30,214 nt of DNA. Source: a virus (taxonomy: Duplodnaviria > Heunggongvirae > Uroviricota > Caudoviricetes). The stretch lies in the IMG/VR virus record IMGVR_UViG_2541047931_000006; one strand, written 5' to 3'. Below are positions 1,308-16,506 of this stretch, in pieces. Each line of letters begins with the position of its first letter. Positions within the stretch are counted from its first letter, which is position 1. A program made the translations under genes and the position numbers. The notes beneath the pieces are model-generated. The model worked only from the letters and a program-made list of their open reading frames with translations, searched no databases and was not told where the DNA came from.

Positions 1308-3779
1308 TTAAAAATCAGCCTGACTCGGGATCAGTTTTTGCCAGATAACTGAAACGTATTTTGCCTGGTAACGGGCGTCATCAAGTGCATTATGGCGCTC
1401 ACCTTCGAATGGAATAGCCGTTCTGGCATCGAAGTCTATGGCTTTCCCCAGCTCAACGATTGTGCGTACATCGCGATCGTTGTAGTAACGCCACGGGCAG
1501 GGGATCCCCTGCCGTTCGTATGAACGGCGCAAAATCGTGTTGTCGAAGTTGGCTCCATTTCCCCAAACCTGAACAAAAAATTCACCGGAGTTTTCGTCGA
1601 TAAATTCCCGCAATTGTAACAGTGCATCATCTAACGGGATTTCATCGGTCATAATGGCAGATTGCGCTTCGCGTGATTGCTTAAGCCACCATTTAATGGT
1701 GTCCCGATCAATGACTCCGCCAGCAGTTTCCAGATCGATAGTCTTACTAAATTCCGGTCCCATATCTCCGGTTTGCGGATCGAAAAATATTGCACCTATT
1801 GAGATGATCGGGGCATCAGGATTTTTTCCCATGGTTTCAAGGTCGATCATTAGATGGTCACACGTCCTGCTGGTGGATGTGATTTCGTGATGACCGTTCA
1901 CCTTAATTGAGCGATCTGCCGTCTCGCCAGTTTCATTATCGCTATCGTGATGCTGATTGCCGCCAGTGTTCTCCTTGTGTGGATGTTCAGCGCCTTCCAT
2001 TTCCTCCGGATCATCTTCCTGAACTTCAACCTGATACTCTTCATCGAATGTTTCCTGGTATGTTGCGTCGCCCATCACCGCGCCACAATCAGGGCAGTTG
2101 CCGCCGCCGGTCTGACCGCAGGCGGTGCAGACTTTTTCCACTTCCTGTTGCGCCACTGGTTCAGGCTGTTTCGTTTCTGGCTCGTTTTGTAACGCATTTG
2201 GGCTGTTTTGTTCCGCTTTTTGGTAGTTCCGTTCCGATTCATGCTGGTTCTGGTTCACAGAATCGCGGGTCTGGATCCCCTTAACCCATTTCGGATCATT
2301 CGGGTCACTAATCCCTTCAACAAATTCACCACGTGATGCAGCAAGCAACTTATCGGCGTCAGGCTGGCTGATATTGGCTGCCTGCATAATTTTGTTTACT
2401 TCGTCAGCGGTAACTTTTATCGGCTCTGGTTGTTCTGAATCTTCAGCGGTATCTACATTTTGCGGTAAGCCCGTGTATGTGCCATTTTTTCGGGCAAAAT
2501 ATTCTTCTTTTGTGATTTCAGTGGCGCCAGCAGCCAGTGCCTTATCCAGACCAGAAAGTTTGTTTGCGCGACCGCATTTTTCTCCGTCCTTATCTGCGAA
2601 GAGGAAATAGAACGGCCCCTCACGCTCTACAGATGGTTCAGCTTCCGGCGCGGTTTCATTTTTTGGGATATCAGATACCTCAGTTTCCACTGCATCAGTT
2701 TGTGTTTCTGATGACTGGAGAACATCAACAGTGCCCAGGTCTGTTTCTTCATTCTCAAACACGCCCTTTGTCGTCAGGTATTCGCAGATATATTTGTTCA
2801 GTGCTATGGGATCTTTGTGAATGTCGATCGGACGCTCACGGACAAGGCCAAAAATAGTTTGGCGGTCGTAGCGAAGGGCATCAGGCTGTTTGCGCATTGA
2901 TGCCGAGATACGCTTCCAGTCTTCGCGGTCGTTGTCGATAACTTCATTTTTTGCCCAGCGATGGATGCTGCCGTCAATGTTTCCGGCATCCACATCACCA
3001 GGCCAGAGAGCGTAGGCCAGTTCGTCATCCAGTGTTTTCCATGTCTGCTTGTATTCGCGATGAATGGCAGCAATGACCGGGCTGATTTTTCCTGTTGAAT
3101 TTTCACTGTGCTGTTGATTGGTTCTGGCGCGGGCGAGATCAATAACAGACGTGTATTTTCCGGTTTCCTTGCGTTCACCTTCGCGACGTTTTTTCCAGAT
3201 GCGCATCTCTGCCTGAATTTCGGGCCATTTGGCACCAGGCTTACATTTATGCTTAACCCACCCGATGGCATGCAGCTTAAGCTCCGGATACATGGCGTTA
3301 ACTTCTGGCATTTTCATCAACGCTTCAACGATATGTCCGTCGAATGTTGCCATGTCTTCCTGCAACAATTCCTGTGCGCTAATAACCATATCAACGGTGA
3401 TGTTTTCACATGTGTCGAACTTAACCATGACAGCGTTCTGTACTTCAGGGGCCAGCTTGTCAAAAGTGACGTTCATCGGATCTGATTCAGTCTCAACCGG
3501 GACAAAGGAAGCAGACTCCTCATCCCAGCGGTTTTCCTGCATATATTCAGCATCCCAGGAATCGAGGGCAGGGCGGGGTATGCCGGGTTTATCCTCACAG
3601 ACAATAAATTTATAAGCGCAGTCCTGAGCTGCAGGGAATTGCTCCAGAAATTGCCAATGAAATTTTGCGCGTGCGCGACGCTCATCACCAGCTTCAATGG
3701 CAGTGGCCACCGCAACAGCGCTATCTTCTTTTATGGCCTGTTCATCAGGAATAGCAGCGCAAATAAAGACCTTACTCAT
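1308..3779 (-). CDS. Large prophage exonuclease with C-terminal DnaQ-like (DEDDh) 3'-5' exonuclease domain
   Basis: 823-aa ORF; C-terminal motifs IDLETMG (Exo I), VWGNGANFD (Exo II) and HNALDDARY (Exo III) are visible; a Cys cluster CTACGQTGGGNCPDCG sits mid-protein; position matches the early-left recombination gene of lambdoid prophages. Confidence 0.75.
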   Translation of the reverse strand: MSKVFICAAIPDEQAIKEDSAVAVATAIEAGDERRARAKFHWQFLEQFPAAQDCAYKFIVCEDKPGIPRPALDSWDAEYMQENRWDEESASFVPVETESDPMNVTFDKLAPEVQNAVMVKFDTCENITVDMVISAQELLQEDMATFDGHIVEALMKMPEVNAMYPELKLHAIGWVKHKCKPGAKWPEIQAEMRIWKKRREGERKETGKYTSVIDLARARTNQQHSENSTGKISPVIAAIHREYKQTWKTLDDELAYALWPGDVDAGNIDGSIHRWAKNEVIDNDREDWKRISASMRKQPDALRYDRQTIFGLVRERPIDIHKDPIALNKYICEYLTTKGVFENEETDLGTVDVLQSSETQTDAVETEVSDIPKNETAPEAEPSVEREGPFYFLFADKDGEKCGRANKLSGLDKALAAGATEITKEEYFARKNGTYTGLPQNVDTAEDSEQPEPIKVTADEVNKIMQAANISQPDADKLLAASRGEFVEGISDPNDPKWVKGIQTRDSVNQNQHESERNYQKAEQNSPNALQNEPETKQPEPVAQQEVEKVCTACGQTGGGNCPDCGAVMGDATYQETFDEEYQVEVQEDDPEEMEGAEHPHKENTGGNQHHDSDNETGETADRSIKVNGHHEITSTSRTCDHLMIDLETMGKNPDAPIISIGAIFFDPQTGDMGPEFSKTIDLETAGGVIDRDTIKWWLKQSREAQSAIMTDEIPLDDALLQLREFIDENSGEFFVQVWGNGANFDNTILRRSYERQGIPCPWRYYNDRDVRTIVELGKAIDFDARTAIPFEGERHNALDDARYQAKYVSVIWQKLIPSQADF

Positions 3780-3874
3780 TTTGTTTTAACCTCATTACAG
3801 ATTTCAGGGTGAACGAATCCCTGCCATTGCTGGCATTTTTAATCCGTTGGTATGGTGTTAATATGGCTGGAGGG

Positions 3875-4063
3875 TTATCCAGCCGGTGTTTCGTTATTCA
3901 GGTACAGCGATACTTTTTTTAGCGGGAGGCATTCACCAGAAATTTTTTGCTCGTCTCTTGCCTGGAGGCAGGATTCTTTACTTGCATAAATTCCGGTAAT
4001 CACATTCTGTGATTCACCCGTTATAAGAAAAACCGTCATCATCAGTGCAAATGCTGAAGTCAT
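3875..4063 (-). CDS. Hypothetical small protein with hydrophobic N-terminus
   Basis: 62-aa ORF in an AT-rich segment; start overlaps the stop of the upstream ORF (ATGA); no recognisable family. Confidence 0.35.
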   Translation of the reverse strand: MTSAFALMMTVFLITGESQNVITGIYASKESCLQARDEQKISGECLPLKKVSLYLNNETPAG

Positions 4064-4248
4064 TGACGTTCTCCGAAAATACCAAGTTCAAGAAGAGCAA
4101 TTCGGGAAAGTATGGAATTATCATTGAGCAGATAAGGCTCATATTTCCTCATATTAATGGCATCTTCAGTAAACTCCCGGTTACTGAGCAGAACACCAAT
4201 ATCAAAACAACCTTCAGACGTATTAACGTTTGGTAATAACGTTTCCAT
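4060..4248 (-). CDS. Hypothetical small protein
   Basis: 62-aa ORF, translationally coupled to the 3875..4063 ORF; AT-rich; no recognisable family. Confidence 0.35.
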   Translation of the reverse strand: METLLPNVNTSEGCFDIGVLLSNREFTEDAINMRKYEPYLLNDNSILSRIALLELGIFGERQ

Positions 4249-4819
4249 TATCGCGTCCTCAACAATGAATTTTGTGATGCAGTGCCTGGTGCCTCCGGGT
4301 GACGTTAACCAGTTAACAATTAACGCCGGGTTAGTTGATGCTCGTTACGCCCGTAAAATACCGCCTTACTGCTTTAACTGTTCCGCGTGCGCATAGCCGC
4401 ATTCACCGCATCACAAAATTCACTTTAAAAAGGGCGGCAGAGCAGTCACGGAGTAAAACTGATACCGCCAAATGTCACCAGAAAATTGATAACAGAGGGC
4501 GTTGTAGCGGGGTTGTCACTTAAGCGTATGGTCAACCTGACAACCCGGTGCATTTTCTGGAGCAATGGAGGAAACCCCAGCCATACTTACCGCCGCGCCA
4601 TTTCGCGGAGTGCCACAACCGGAAGCGCACGGTCGAACTAAATTTAACGACACCGTACAGAGAGACCAATTTCGCCGTGCGCTTTCGCGTTATGCCCTGA
4701 CTTTTCAGGGACATATCCTTTCAGTAAGCTGTCAGTGCCGGATGCTCACCCGTGTCCGGCGCACGCACTCCACCTGACCCGTGGAGAACTCCTTAATTAC
4801 CAACCCTCAGGAGGGTGAA

Positions 4820-5098
4820 ATGGATAAAAAGCAAATTGAGGCCCTGCAATCTATTATTGAAGAACAAGATGAAGCTATCAGGATTCTTTCATATCGCACT
4901 GATATGATACTAAATATGCTTTCTGCATTAACGGCTGCGCTTGGTGGTACAAAAACAAACGTATACCGCGAAGTTGTTATTCAACAGATAGATAAATTTG
5001 AAAAAACCATACCAGGTATTAATGCTCATCTTGCAGAACAAGAGAAAGACCATGCTCTTATGGCAATTTCTTCAGTAGCTCTCCCGAAAGTTGAGTAG
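4820..5098 (+). CDS. Hypothetical coiled-coil protein (AT-rich accessory gene)
   Basis: ATG at 4820 preceded by GGAGGG at 4810-4815 (the ORF track start at 4781 is GTG); 92 aa; roughly 37% GC by eye against a GC-richer backbone; opposite in direction to the surrounding leftward operon. Confidence 0.5.
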   Translation: MDKKQIEALQSIIEEQDEAIRILSYRTDMILNMLSALTAALGGTKTNVYREVVIQQIDKFEKTIPGINAHLAEQEKDHALMAISSVALPKVE

Positions 5099-5459
5099 TT
5101 TTAATTGTTGTTTTGAAATAATCACTGCTTTCACATTTGAGTGATTTCATGGCAATCCAAATGCGGGCCTCTGTGCCTGCATTTGGTTCCAGTTGCTGTA
5201 GACGTTTTGCGTCTTCCAAAAGTAAGGCGATAATGTGTTTCAGCTTCTCATCATTTGCTTGATTCTTGTTTTCAGGCGAATTCTGTCCGCCGAATAGGCG
5301 CTTCTCTTCATACAGACCTATAAAGGCACGACGCACGTTACCGGATATAGTATCGATGGTTTCCTTTTCTACGGTACTCAGGTCAAGAGTCGCCAGTTGA
5401 GAGCGAACCACATTCGATGCCATTTCCTGGAATGGTACTGGTAAATCTTTAAATTCCAT
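5058..5459 (-). CDS. Hypothetical protein (AT-rich accessory gene)
   Basis: 133 aa from the internal ATG (MEFKDL...) preceded by GAGG; 3' end overlaps the convergent 4820..5098 ORF by about 41 bp; no recognisable family. Confidence 0.5.
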   Translation of the reverse strand: MEFKDLPVPFQEMASNVVRSQLATLDLSTVEKETIDTISGNVRRAFIGLYEEKRLFGGQNSPENKNQANDEKLKHIIALLLEDAKRLQQLEPNAGTEARIWIAMKSLKCESSDYFKTTIKTTQLSGELLKKLP

Positions 5460-5470
5460 CGTCAACCTCA

Positions 5471-5623
5471 TCAGTCAGTGTTTCTGGTTAACCAGCGACG
5501 CGCGCCAGCTTCAGTTTTAAACGTTTTGCTTCTGGTATACGTCATCGCGGTGAACGTACCGTCCTGGTTGGGGAACACGCCACATACCAGAGATTCGCTG
5601 TTGCCAAGATCGATAGTATCCAT
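5471..5623 (-). CDS. Small prophage protein, possibly DUF1391/YdaF-like
   Basis: 50 aa from the internal ATG (MDTIDLGN...) with AAGGGGAAATGAGG upstream; sits just downstream of the repressor gene as ydaF does in Rac; family assignment from memory only. Confidence 0.4.
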   Translation of the reverse strand: MDTIDLGNSESLVCGVFPNQDGTFTAMTYTRSKTFKTEAGARRWLTRNTD

Positions 5624-5810
5624 GCTGACCTCATTTCCCCTTAACGCCGGGGTAGCGGAACAAAAACCTGCTGCATAGTTATTAAAGTTGAACCCTGCCG
5701 TCATGTTCTTACGCCTCGGGCTGGCTACTTAACCCCTGACCACTGCCTGGTAACTCGAAGTATTGCCCTGCATTCTGTGGGGCGGGGTGGGTTGGTATGA
5801 AAAGAAGGAT

Positions 5811-5845
5811 ACCCATAGGTATTTAAAAAGTAAATACCTATGGGT
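5811..5845. promoter_or_regulatory. Perfect 15-bp-arm palindrome, operator-like and/or bidirectional terminator
   Basis: ACCCATAGGTATTTA-aaaag-TAAATACCTATGGGT read directly, followed by AAATTTTT; half-site resembles the ACCTGTGGGTATT repeats in the repressor/cro intergenic region. Confidence 0.5.
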
Positions 5846-5888
5846 AAATTTTTGCGGTGTCTTAACTGGTGACTAGTTGTTTGGTGAG

Positions 5889-6308
5889 CTATGATGCGTT
5901 TTGTGCTTTCTTTTTACGGATTTCTTCGTAGATCATATTGTAATACTGTTTTTTCTCTTCAAGAGTTTTTAATAATTTATCCGCTTCACTTTCTGGCAGT
6001 TCGTCTAAGAGATCTAAAAAAATACGTTGTCGTGGCGTTAGAACCCTTGTTTCATAACTGGAGGCTGTGTTCGTTGATGATGAAACGATACCATCCATCC
6101 ATCCCCGGGGTAACCCAAAGGACTCTTCGATAATCTCCACCATATCATCAGCGATCCGTTTTTTTCCCTTTTTCCCCTCTGGGTACAACATTCTTGATAC
6201 ATAAGAAGGCTCGCGCCCGATCTTTCTGGCCACGTTAACCGCTTTACCATCGCATTTCTCATCACGAATTTTGATGAGTTGCTGTCGTCTAAATTCATAT
6301 TTGTCCAT
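5889..6308 (-). CDS. Prophage repressor with N-terminal HTH (RacR-like)
   Basis: 139-aa ORF with an XRE-type HTH (AVNVARKIGREPSYVSRML); divergent from a YdaS/YdaT-like pair as in Rac; no S24 peptidase domain. Confidence 0.65.
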   Translation of the reverse strand: MDKYEFRRQQLIKIRDEKCDGKAVNVARKIGREPSYVSRMLYPEGKKGKKRIADDMVEIIEESFGLPRGWMDGIVSSSTNTASSYETRVLTPRQRIFLDLLDELPESEADKLLKTLEEKKQYYNMIYEEIRKKKAQNAS

Positions 6309-6328
6309 AGGTAAATAATAGATGCGAT

Positions 6329-6392
6329 TACCGCAAGGTAAACAACCTGTGGGTATTGACTTTTGTTTACCTGTGGGTATTCTTTGCTGTGT
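6329..6392. promoter_or_regulatory. Divergent promoter/operator region of the immunity switch
   Basis: Direct repeats ACCTGTGGGTATT at 6346-6358 and 6370-6382; plus-strand TTGACT (6357-6362), 16-bp spacer, TATTCT; the second repeat overlaps the -10. Confidence 0.5.
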
Positions 6393-10910: not shown

Positions 10911-11147
10911 TTTTATGGATCACCTTTCTGATTGATTTCATATTGGCGAGGTGACGTGAGTTAAGTAGAATGGCTGCGGGTGCTTGAGGCTATCTGTCTC
11001 AGGCATGAACACTGAAAGGCAGATAGAGAAAAGCCCCAGTTAACATTTCGCGTCCTGCAAGACGCTTAACATTAATCTGAGGCCCAATCTATGTCTCACA
11101 AATGTAGGTTAGCCTCTTACGTGCCGAAAGGCAAGGGGAAGCAGGCT

Positions 11148-11303
11148 ATGAAGCAGCAAAAGGCGATGTTAATCGCCCTGATCGTCATCTGTTTAACCGT
11201 CATAGTGACGGCACTGGTAACGAGGAAAGACCTCTGCGAGGTACGACTCCGAACCGGCCAGACGGAGGTCGCTGTCTTCACAGCTTACGAACCTGAGGAG
11301 TAA
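11148..11303 (+). CDS. Hok/Gef-family membrane toxin (HokD/RelF-like)
   Basis: 51-aa product MKQQKAMLIALIVICLTVIVTALVTRKDLCEVRLRTGQTEVAVFTAYEPEE; RBS AAGGGGAA; the ORF track shows an in-frame upstream extension from 11091. Confidence 0.85.
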   Translation: MKQQKAMLIALIVICLTVIVTALVTRKDLCEVRLRTGQTEVAVFTAYEPEE

Positions 11304-15512: not shown

Positions 15513-15588
15513 GGCCCTTTAGCTCAGTGGTGAGAGCGAGCGACTCATAATCGCCAGGTCGCTGGTTCAAATCCAGCAAGGGCCACCA
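15513..15588 (+). tRNA. tRNA with anticodon CAU (Met, or Ile if lysidine-modified; ileZ-like)
   Basis: Cloverleaf folded by hand: acceptor GGCCCTT/AAGGGCC, D-arm GCTC/GAGC, anticodon loop CTCATAA, T-arm GCTGG-TTCAAAT-CCAGC, 3' ACCA. Confidence 0.85.
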
Positions 15589-15595
15589 TCACATA

Positions 15596-15672
15596 CCGCC
15601 ATTAGCTCATCAGGAAAGAGCGCCAGCTTTCGAAGCTGGTTGCGCGGAGTTCGGGTCCCCGAAGGCGGTCCA
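15596..15672 (+). tRNA. tRNA-Arg-like (anticodon UCG) with atypical T-arm
   Basis: Hand fold: D-arm GCTC/GAGC, perfect anticodon stem CCAGC/GCTGG with loop TTTCGAA, 3' TCCA; acceptor and T-stem each have one mismatch and the T-loop TTCGGGT lacks the usual A58. Confidence 0.55.
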
Positions 15673-15685
15673 TTATCTGTATCCT

Positions 15686-15762
15686 GCGTTGTTAGCTCAG
15701 CCGGACAGAGCAATTGCCTTCTAAGCAATCGGTCACTGGTTCGAATCCAGTACAACGCGCCA
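15686..15762 (+). tRNA. tRNA-Arg (anticodon UCU)
   Basis: Hand fold: acceptor GCGTTGT/ACAACGC, D-arm GCTC/GAGC, anticodon stem ATTGC/GCAAT with loop CTTCTAA, T-arm ACTGG-TTCGAAT-CCAGT, 3' GCCA. Confidence 0.85.
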
Positions 15763-15805: not shown

Positions 15806-16020
15806 TCTCACAATTCAGGCGGTTGACTGTTGTCTGGTTTGCGGGGAGTTTGTTAAAAGAAACTGGCATGGTGAATCCCCCTGTGCGGAGGGGCAATCAG
15901 CGAGTAGGTATATGGGATAATCGCGGATTCAGGTGCTGGTACTGAATTCACCGGGAGGCACCCGGCACCATGCAATGGCACATAGCGCCACTCTCCAGCC
16001 CCTCTCCGGAGGGGCTTTTC
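15806..16020 (+). repeat. Structured non-coding module, copy 1
   Basis: Shares with copy 2 the blocks CTCACAATTCAG, TTGAC(T/A), TTTGTTAAAA, CATGGTGAATCCCCCTG(T/A)GCGGAGGGGC, TGAA(T/C)TCACCGGGAGGCACCCGGCACCATG and the terminal hairpin AGCCCCTCTCCGGAGGGGCTTT. Confidence 0.6.
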
Positions 16021-16273
16021 TGTGCCGGATACATCACAGTTTCTGGAACCTTAGGTACTACAGTATCAGTCAGGGTGCTATATTTTCAGATGTGATGAAA
16101 GCCTGTCAGCAGGCAGGGCGTATCGGAAATGACCCAGTAGAGAAAACGTTGACTCAGATACCGGTGCTGAGTTACCGGGAAACCGGCATCACATGACCGC
16201 TATCCTTCCAGGCCCATCCGCTCCGGTGGGCCTTTTTACTGCAGAAAACAGGTTCCCCGTTAAATGCTATGTT

Positions 16274-16506
16274 GCTCACAATTCAGTAAGTTGACAGTTG
16301 CCTGTCAGACTGGGCATTTGTTAAAAAAATTTCGCATGGTGAATCCCCCTGAGCGGAGGGGCGACTGGTGACGGTATAATCTCTGATTATCAAAACGAGA
16401 ATGACGCGGGTTTAGTGGCACCGGGCTGAACTCACCGGGAGGCACCCGGCACCATGTGCATGATGATACAGATACGCGGCTTTAGCCCCTCTCCGGAGGG
16501 GCTTTC
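16274..16506 (+). repeat. Structured non-coding module, copy 2
   Basis: Second copy of the same block set; carries a consensus TTGACA and a TATAAT hexamer; ends in the GCCCCTC-TCCG-GAGGGGC hairpin plus T-run; the flanking ACAAAAAAA-GCCCGCG...CGCGGGC hairpin would be a terminator on the minus strand. Confidence 0.6.

Follow-up and report, generated by a model that had tools for sequence, protein, structure and literature searches.

A stretch of viral DNA of 30,214 nucleotides (IMG/VR record IMGVR_UViG_2541047931_000006, Caudoviricetes; hereafter the window) carries, at positions 4820–5623, a plus-strand gene for a 92-amino acid (aa) protein (4820–5098) that converges on and overlaps a minus-strand gene for a 133-aa protein (5058–5459), next to a small gene of the DUF1391 family. 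We put at roughly one in two the probability that two independent modules meet here tail to tail, at a hot spot for recombination within the early-left dicBF operon, with the plus-strand gene being an accessory cassette opposed by antisense transcription. This reading is favored because the cassettes behind one leader are swapped between prophages, because the plus-strand gene occurs in three prophage backbones, because its position is equivalent to that of known accessory genes, and because its pairing with the 133-aa gene appears non-cognate. The window is a lambdoid prophage of E. coli with an integration site adjoining ompW, and an identical, RefSeq-annotated copy of the locus is present in E. 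coli AR_0013. A first-pass annotation, made from the letters and their open reading frames (ORFs), had reported the convergence and overlap of the two ORFs, which the coordinates, an overlap of 41 bp and the RefSeq coding sequences confirm.

Comparison of loci places the plus-strand gene among at least 12 alternative small ORFs, all found behind one conserved leader and opposite in orientation to the operon. IMG/VR was scanned with a pattern for the first leader hairpin (HP1) and the loci were then parsed (L071–L190, for example L135, L129, L156, L097, L138, L154, L189 and L190). In these and in E. coli loci, at least 12 unrelated small ORFs of 57–99 aa follow the same leader and Shine–Dalgarno (SD) sequence in other prophages, and in prophages of the Qin/Tritos and L004 types the leader is present without a following ORF. 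Two cassette types are Cys-rich and zinc-ribbon-like, one barely attains the threshold of the Pfam GhoS family (type V antitoxin RNase, 21.2 vs 21 bits), and all cassettes but the GhoS-like one either belong to PHROGs without an assigned function or have no PHROG match. The plus-strand gene has both the presence/absence polymorphism among related prophages and the deviant composition (37% vs 51.5% GC) of a moron.

The left anchor of this variable slot is a conserved, GC-rich (54%) “dicF-like region” linker of about 335 bp (4484–4819), which is conserved at 72–88% identity in dicBF prophages, whether or not these have a plus-strand ORF, and in P2/186-like Salmonella prophages without dicF; the copies in loci L011–L013 lie at about 3665–4003. 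Its 5′ half corresponds to a segment annotated as dicF-like region in phage P1 (NC_005856 68739–68833), part of it is also found in P7 and in an Actinobacillus phage, and a search of Rfam with 4484–4819 returned no family. The linker may represent a structured RNA, or a processing element, that has not been described before. Its last 85 nt hold the plus-strand leader, for which RNAalifold gives a consensus of three hairpins (4736–4813), with HP1 at 4736–4761, HP2 at 4768–4786 and HP3 at 4789–4813. The stem of HP1 is invariant, with U·G and G·U pairs, that of HP2 exists in at least four distinct sequences, every one of them pairing, and compensatory changes affect three HP2 pairs and one HP3 pair. 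HP3 pairs with the SD sequence (GGAGGG, 4810–4815, read from the sequence, 4 nt before the ATG at 4820), and the motif GGAGG(G/A)T.A.ATG is kept ahead of different cassettes. In the minimum free energy (MFE) folds of 16 leader variants, the SD sequence is at least partly paired in every case and HP1 and HP2 are found in nearly all. The variants were compared by per-sequence folding; a MAFFT alignment shifts the register of HP2 between stem variants.

The 92-aa gene (RefSeq WP_000358769.1, here cassette type A) has a GC content of 37.3%, within the lowest 0.5% among 279-nt windows and in line with the 37% first estimated by eye. The 133-aa ORF stands at 42.5%, so that, against 51.5% for the whole window, both are indeed compositionally distinct as claimed at first. 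The encoded 92-aa protein is acidic (isoelectric point 5.1) and predicted to be soluble, without a transmembrane (TM) segment (highest 19-residue Kyte–Doolittle mean 0.93). It had been described as coiled-coil-like, which is roughly right, the AlphaFold2 model having three helices (residues 3–40, 48–59 and 69–85) at a mean predicted local distance difference test score (pLDDT) of 81. Versus Salmonella copies the ratio of nonsynonymous to synonymous substitution rates (dN/dS) is 0.08–0.25, with window-to-Salmonella substitutions at codon positions 1/2/3 of 14/6/25 and 16/6/24. For the 133-aa ORF dN/dS is about 0.2 in most pairs and 0.57–0.73 in two pairs with locus L010. Both ORFs are therefore taken, from low dN/dS and the third-position substitution bias, to be genuine coding genes under purifying selection.

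The 92-aa family (phrog_18692, function unknown, labeled “hypothetical” in every source) is tiny, with 22–39 matches in 5.8 × 10⁹ proteins, all from Enterobacteriaceae where the source organism is named. A HMMER search of 1.84 × 10⁹ representatives with the family profile gave 21 proteins, all but one being short relatives or fragments and the odd match a repetitive 1482-aa protein. No match was obtained by tblastn against 50,697 phage genomes or in a GTDB genome scan with the family patterns, and an IMG/VR scan gave near-identical copies only. A distant homologue (type B, 28% identity, E 1e-5) occupies the same site in another prophage. The type-A gene itself is present in three backbones, namely dicBF lambdoid prophages, Salmonella RecET Rac-like prophages (71–74% identity) and Salmonella P2/186-like prophages (44–47% identity). 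At ≥95% nucleotide identity it is found in 127 of 5426 E. coli genomes, 124 of which hold the whole module; this co-occurrence reflects one recent lineage and is no independent evidence of linkage.

The facing 133-aa gene (RefSeq WP_001339605.1, matching phrog_1363 over its full length) is the second gene of the early-left operon; an alternative in-frame ATG at 5471, which overlaps the upstream stop codon (TGATG), would extend the product to 137 aa. The gene is a mosaic, with a conserved module at the N-terminus, then a YmfJ-like core and finally a tail that goes with the cassette. Separate PHROGs match residues 1–62 and 69–117, and the AlphaFold2 pLDDT is about 82 for residues 1–55 and about 50 for the remainder, so that a fold search was not justified by the C-terminal half. 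The N-terminal module (about 55 aa, MEFKDLP...GLYEEK, 5295–5459, minus strand) is common to many dicBF-type prophages, in which it is joined to many different C-terminal parts. It is 84% identical over 63 aa to a 106-aa protein with an unrelated remainder, and most of the 931 E. coli records that match the module do so only over this part (5300–5470). The YmfJ-like core (residues 69–108, LKHIIALLLEDAKRLQQLEPNAGTEARIW, 5136–5255, minus strand) is 75% identical over 40 aa to YmfJ of the K-12 prophage e14 (BLASTP, E 3e-20), with 78% nucleotide identity to K-12 ymfJ, and 60% identical to a free-standing 71-aa Salmonella protein. Free-standing homologues of the core measure 48–75 aa overall, versions of 48–52 aa included. 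Like ymfJ, the 133-aa gene lies at the start of the early-left operon near a CI-type repressor.

The two genes share 41 bp at their 3′ ends (5058–5098), with no terminator found between them, and exactly the same overlap with the facing minus-strand ORF is seen in each backbone, including the Salmonella Rac-like and P2/186-like prophages. Within the overlap, 27 substitutions fall at plus-strand codon position 3 versus 9 and 14 at positions 1 and 2. Because changes gather at plus position 3, which is the second position of the minus frame, constraint lies on the plus frame. The final ∼29 residues of the minus-strand protein accompany the cassette, and do so also where they are attached to an unrelated protein of 171–200 aa. 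Among the cassettes, most share 0–49 bp with the 3′ end of the minus-strand ORF opposite, and two leave a gap. In our reading, each cassette brings about 90 nt of its own 3′ flank, into which the upstream minus-strand gene reads until a stop codon is met, generating in this case the 41-bp overlap.

The partners, in turn, are exchanged. At least six unrelated plus-strand genes occur opposite the YmfJ core (type A, the 57-aa MQVDIISP ORF, YmfI, and the GhoS-like, Zn-ribbon and MTQEEKVM cassettes), and one C-terminal part (“C2”) is seen with two different cassettes. The same 133-aa gene, at about 90% identity, has a different plus-strand partner or none in about 42 E. coli genomes, and type-A-like genes face either YmfJ-type proteins or the unrelated 171–200-aa protein, which has a weak helix-turn-helix match in some copies. 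The arrangement is likewise unlike that of a type II toxin–antitoxin (TA) system, the genes being convergent rather than cotranscribed, without homology to toxin or antitoxin families and without strict co-occurrence. Among Pfam, PADLOC and NCBIfam models, no TA or defense family reaches threshold for either protein, the best being a RelB-like antitoxin model at 15.6 bits vs a cutoff of 50. The 92-aa and 133-aa genes are therefore probably not a cognate functional pair, and not a cognate TA pair in particular, because the YmfJ core is paired, in one prophage or another, with at least six different plus-strand genes. Of the proposals made at first, antisense regulation stays plausible by precedent, and that of a TA or obligate pair does not find support, partners re-assorting and TA families being absent. 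In the comparison across related prophages that had been called for, the pair is kept from E. coli to Salmonella, and partners re-assort freely among prophages.

The setting is more specific than the early-left region named in the first-pass annotation. On the minus strand, the order is CI-type repressor, a 37-bp palindrome, DUF1391/ydfA, the 133-aa gene, a GC-rich untranslated stretch, DicF, dicB, DUF1482/ydfD and an exonuclease gene. DicF, dicB, ydfA and ydfD are thus all present, in one orientation and downstream of a repressor, and the region is the dicBF operon of Qin-type prophages (ydfA...dicF-dicB-ydfD). The DUF1391 gene (YdfA/YdaF family; 5471–5623, minus strand, RefSeq-annotated, with an ORF open as far as 5704), whose family had been named correctly (Pfam PF07151, E 6.6e-27), is the first of the operon. 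Further downstream on the same strand follow the DicF small RNA (4432–4483; Rfam RF00039, 77 bits vs a gathering score of 48), the gene for the cell division inhibitor DicB (4060–4248; Pfam PF05358, E 6e-37; RefSeq) and the ydfD-like DUF1482 gene (3875–4063; Pfam PF07358, E 1.5e-14). The dicF–dicB spacer (4271–4420, minus strand) holds a weak, subthreshold STnc100-like match (26 bits, E 0.003). Where Qin and phage Tritos have ydfB and ydfC, the window has the module at 4800–5470, and neither of the two genes is found between its ydfA and dicF. The repressor (139 aa, 5889–6308, minus strand; phrog_5736 transcriptional regulator, E 6e-70) is not DicA, its weakly DicA-like C-terminus scoring 24.5 bits vs a DicA-model cutoff of 101; the syntenic gene of phage Tritos is annotated as CI repressor.

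Between the repressor and DUF1391 genes lies a perfect 16+16-bp palindrome (5810–5846) with two copies of an operator-like 12-nt motif (TACCCATAGGTA), which is found three more times in the repressor/cro intergenic region (6305–6381). Because the motif is also present between the repressor and cro-like genes, the palindrome is probably the left operator OL, overlapping the early-left promoter PL, and the copies at 6305–6381 probably the right operators OR. A consensus scan alone would label 5810–5846 a bidirectional terminator, the palindrome scoring as a terminator-like hairpin. We revised the reading as a simple terminator, since the operator-like motifs are common to the OR region. Variation in this operon extends beyond the slot under study. 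In the related prophage of E. coli FORC_069 (L003), a relBE type II TA pair (3335–3816) lies between the repressor and DUF1391 genes, a second variable slot just upstream, and that of E. coli EBJ003 (L004) has a gene for a Rha-family regulator (901–1755) inserted between the dicF region and dicB, a further case of operon mosaicism.

Genes convergent on the start of the early-left operon are known from several prophages. In lambda, the minus-strand N gene abuts the plus-strand sieB tail to tail, in the same slot and orientation as the plus-strand gene of the window. In Rac, racR is followed by ydaF (DUF1391, minus strand) and by sieB (plus strand) in the same slot, overlapping ydaF by 4 bp, with dicF-like sequence and linker remnants kept upstream of sieB as in the window. 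The early suggestion that the pair lies where lambdoid phages carry exclusion genes is thereby upheld, the convergent layout being that of sieB in lambda and Rac. SieB, however, is a larger membrane protein, whereas the 92-aa protein has no sequence or fold similarity to it (no Pfam match at E ≤ 0.1) and no TM segment; the plus-strand gene, convergent on the first early-left genes, thus occupies the sieB slot without being a SieB homologue. The leaders of lambda and Rac sieB and of e14 ymfI belong to another family than that of the window and have only a short block in common with it. Translation of sieB in P22 is under the control of an antisense RNA, sas (PMC12197685, PMC7067206).

Prophage e14 is alike in that ymfJ adjoins a CI-type repressor and is overlapped, by 63 bp, by the convergent plus-strand gene ymfI. 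It differs in lacking dicF and dicB, in lacking the extra N-terminal module of the 133-aa gene, and in that YmfI is unrelated to the 92-aa family; YmfI (113 aa), considered as a homologue of the 92-aa protein, was discarded at an hhalign probability of about 0. An excludon map of K-12 derived from public E. coli MG1655 RNA-seq data includes ymfI-ymfJ and sieB-ydaF, both as convergent excludons (PMC12288877). Both ymfJ mRNA and YmfJ protein are induced late in the SOS response, and e14 ymfI rises slightly at that stage (log2 about 2) (PMC11002266). The late timing of YmfJ fits an early-left gene freed by repressor cleavage. With Qin dicBF (ydfA-ydfB-ydfC-dicF-dicB-ydfD), the window shares the operon skeleton, control by a repressor and the long untranslated stretch that precedes dicF (PMC10448788, PMC5069750), and differs in holding the 133-aa and antisense 92-aa genes vs ydfB/ydfC and in its repressor. 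An antisense gene at this position is not described in these two dicBF papers.

From this layout a mechanism can be proposed for the favored reading of two independent modules. Leftward transcription from OL/PL would proceed through ydfA, the 133-aa gene, the linker, dicF, dicB, ydfD and the exonuclease gene under control of the repressor. The plus-strand gene would be of moron type and transcribed on its own, judging from its orientation and its analogues most likely in lysogeny, while the early-left operon is repressed, with the leader hairpin over the ribosome-binding site damping its translation. Inactivation of the repressor would launch strong leftward transcription, antisense through the whole plus-strand gene and its leader, and polymerase collision, double-stranded RNA or RNase III cleavage would then shut the plus-strand gene down, following the logic of excludons or noncontiguous operons. 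Precedents exist in S. aureus prophages, in which induction switches off the defense gene tha via an overlapping antisense gene (PMC11087260). With these and with excludons the window has in common a prophage gene overlapped by an opposing lytic operon, such that induction could silence it (PMC11087260, PMC12288877). In Tha/Ith, however, a HEPN RNase (Tha) is paired with a specific protein inhibitor (Ith), whereas neither the 92-aa nor the 133-aa protein has a recognizable domain, and no partner specificity is seen. Genes antisense to lytic genes with a promoter of their own are typical accessory loci (PMC7067206). Morons and accessory hot spots such as rexAB and bstA are, like the plus-strand gene, AT-rich, present or absent among otherwise similar prophages, opposed in orientation to the operon around it and set between conserved sequences through which exchange is possible (PMC7067206). 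What sets the window apart from these is one structured leader and SD sequence common to many unrelated cassettes. That the 92-aa protein acts in phage–phage or phage–host conflict (exclusion or defense) and not in core phage development is plausible and is the weakest of our inferences.

Several observations weigh against this picture. A classical moron has its own promoter and terminator. For the plus-strand gene, a consensus scan yielded no sigma-70 promoter, and the best site upstream of 4820 in a position weight matrix (PWM) scan (TTTTCA-17-TAAGCT, 4702–4730, plus strand) scores 8.0 vs a shuffled median of 7.9; this weak candidate is positionally conserved and would start transcription near the foot of HP1. 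No intrinsic terminator was found after the gene. Folding energies of the leader are alike on both strands, the G·U wobble variants favoring the plus strand, and HP1 and HP2 persist in prophages without a plus-strand ORF. The 92-aa protein has no match at the curated cutoffs of Pfam, PADLOC and NCBIfam (in Pfam none at E ≤ 0.1), and fold searches with its model found no informative structural neighbor. In about 10 IMG/VR copies (L065, L066, L069, L132 and similar) a frameshift shortens the 92-aa ORF to 27 aa (MDKKQIEALQSIIEKQDEAIRILFIS...), and the gene is therefore dispensable, and decaying, in some prophage lineages. An exclusion or defense role for the protein has position as its single argument, and lysogenic or lytic timing is read from orientation and analogues only.

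The absence of a lysogenic-type promoter in our scans also bears on an alternative that we consider unlikely, though it fares best among those weighed, in which the plus-strand cassettes are lytic-phase genes (anti-defense or host takeover) expressed from a linker promoter or by read-through, the convergent layout merely tolerating them. Their sizes (57–99 aa), diversity and hot-spot behavior are typical of counter-defense and host-takeover genes, a leader that sequesters the SD sequence suggests translation only upon some activating event, and the slight rise of e14 ymfI late in the SOS response (PMC11002266) points the same way. The orientation of the cassettes, however, opposes all neighboring early genes, and head-on transcription would penalize their expression when PL is active. 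The characterized occupant of the slot, sieB, provides a prophage exclusion function, and the appearance of ymfI-ymfJ and sieB-ydaF in the MG1655 excludon map (PMC12288877) likewise counts against this alternative.

The constant overlap raises the question of a cognate two-protein system after all, be it toxin and antitoxin or an exclusion effector with self-immunity in the manner of Tha/Ith or SieB/Esc, which we regard as improbable. The lysogen would make the 92-aa protein, and upon induction the variable C-terminus of the 133-aa protein would neutralize it, with antisense transcription assisting. The overlap of 41 bp and the pairing of type-A with YmfJ-type genes are kept from E. coli to Salmonella at 60–74% protein identity, 124 of the 127 E. 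coli type-A genomes hold the whole module at high identity, and the variable C-terminal parts of the minus-strand ORF change along with the cassette, its last ∼29 residues even accompanying the latter on the unrelated 171–200-aa protein. Tha/Ith provides a precedent for an inhibitor gene that is overlapping and antisense (PMC11087260). Such co-inheritance is, however, expected regardless for DNA between two recombination anchors, only the plus frame is constrained in the overlap while the minus-frame tail varies freely, and the searches for TA and defense families ended with the RelB-like score given above and nothing meaningful from PADLOC. The re-assortment of partners argues against a cognate pair: unrelated plus-strand genes number at least six for the YmfJ core and two for the C2 part, and the 133-aa gene has another partner or none in about 42 E. 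coli genomes.

A bolder extension of the same idea, which strikes us as a long shot, would make the sieB slot, in lambdoid and P2/186-like enterobacterial prophages, a dedicated expression site for dozens of interchangeable small genes, each encoding a different phage-exclusion or defense effector of the lysogen and each with a matching antisense self-immunity tail. A conserved structured leader would mask the ribosome-binding site, the tail would be fused onto the first early-left gene, and induction would deliver both antisense RNA and protein tail to silence the resident effector. Self-immunity would then operate as in SieB/Esc/sas or Tha/Ith, with the 92-aa and 133-aa proteins being one such set.

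That RNA is the main product, with plus-strand transcription restraining, as antisense, the leaky read-through from the early-left operon into the toxic dicF and dicB and the cassette ORFs being incidental passengers, is very unlikely. The plus-strand ORF is under selection at the protein level (dN/dS 0.08–0.25 and the third-position bias), its SD sequence is strong and conserved, the same cassette is found in prophages without dicF or dicB, and Qin-type operons do without any cassette. Hardly credible is a chance or decaying, functionless plus-strand ORF next to a minus-strand gene that alone matters, since, the 10 or so frameshifted IMG/VR copies, the missing promoter and terminator and the tiny family notwithstanding, full length is kept at 44–74% protein identity across E. 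coli and Salmonella in three backbones, with a dN/dS of 0.08–0.25, a type-B homologue (28% identity) occupies the same site, the SD sequence is strong and 4820–5057 has no competing minus-strand ORF.

Elsewhere in the window, the replication/late-regulation part contains a sok antitoxin RNA (10978–11153; Rfam, 120 bits), which suggests a hok/sok-type type I TA locus, and RefSeq annotates a gene for the epoxyqueuosine reductase QueH past the replication genes, from about 10245 onward (L001 10546–10701). Three tRNA genes, followed by two STnc100 copies (136–165 bits in Rfam) and an isrC small RNA (139 bits), are found at 15513–15759, 15837–16027, 16305–16514 and 17302–17424.

Each of the two proteins is encoded on more than 1000 contigs and annotated as “hypothetical” everywhere, and the sieB/ymfI slot of a dicBF operon gives both a testable context. 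The pair itself is an uncharacterized example of an already known prophage arrangement, and should its proteins be without phenotype the cassette would merely be one more prophage moron. The data suggest that, in many E. coli strains, the toxic dicF/dicB module may have its expression tied to an antisense gene. The most interesting byproduct is the shared-leader slot, which, occurring in lambdoid as well as P2/186-like prophages, constitutes a compact hot spot for finding candidate exclusion, defense or host-modulating genes.

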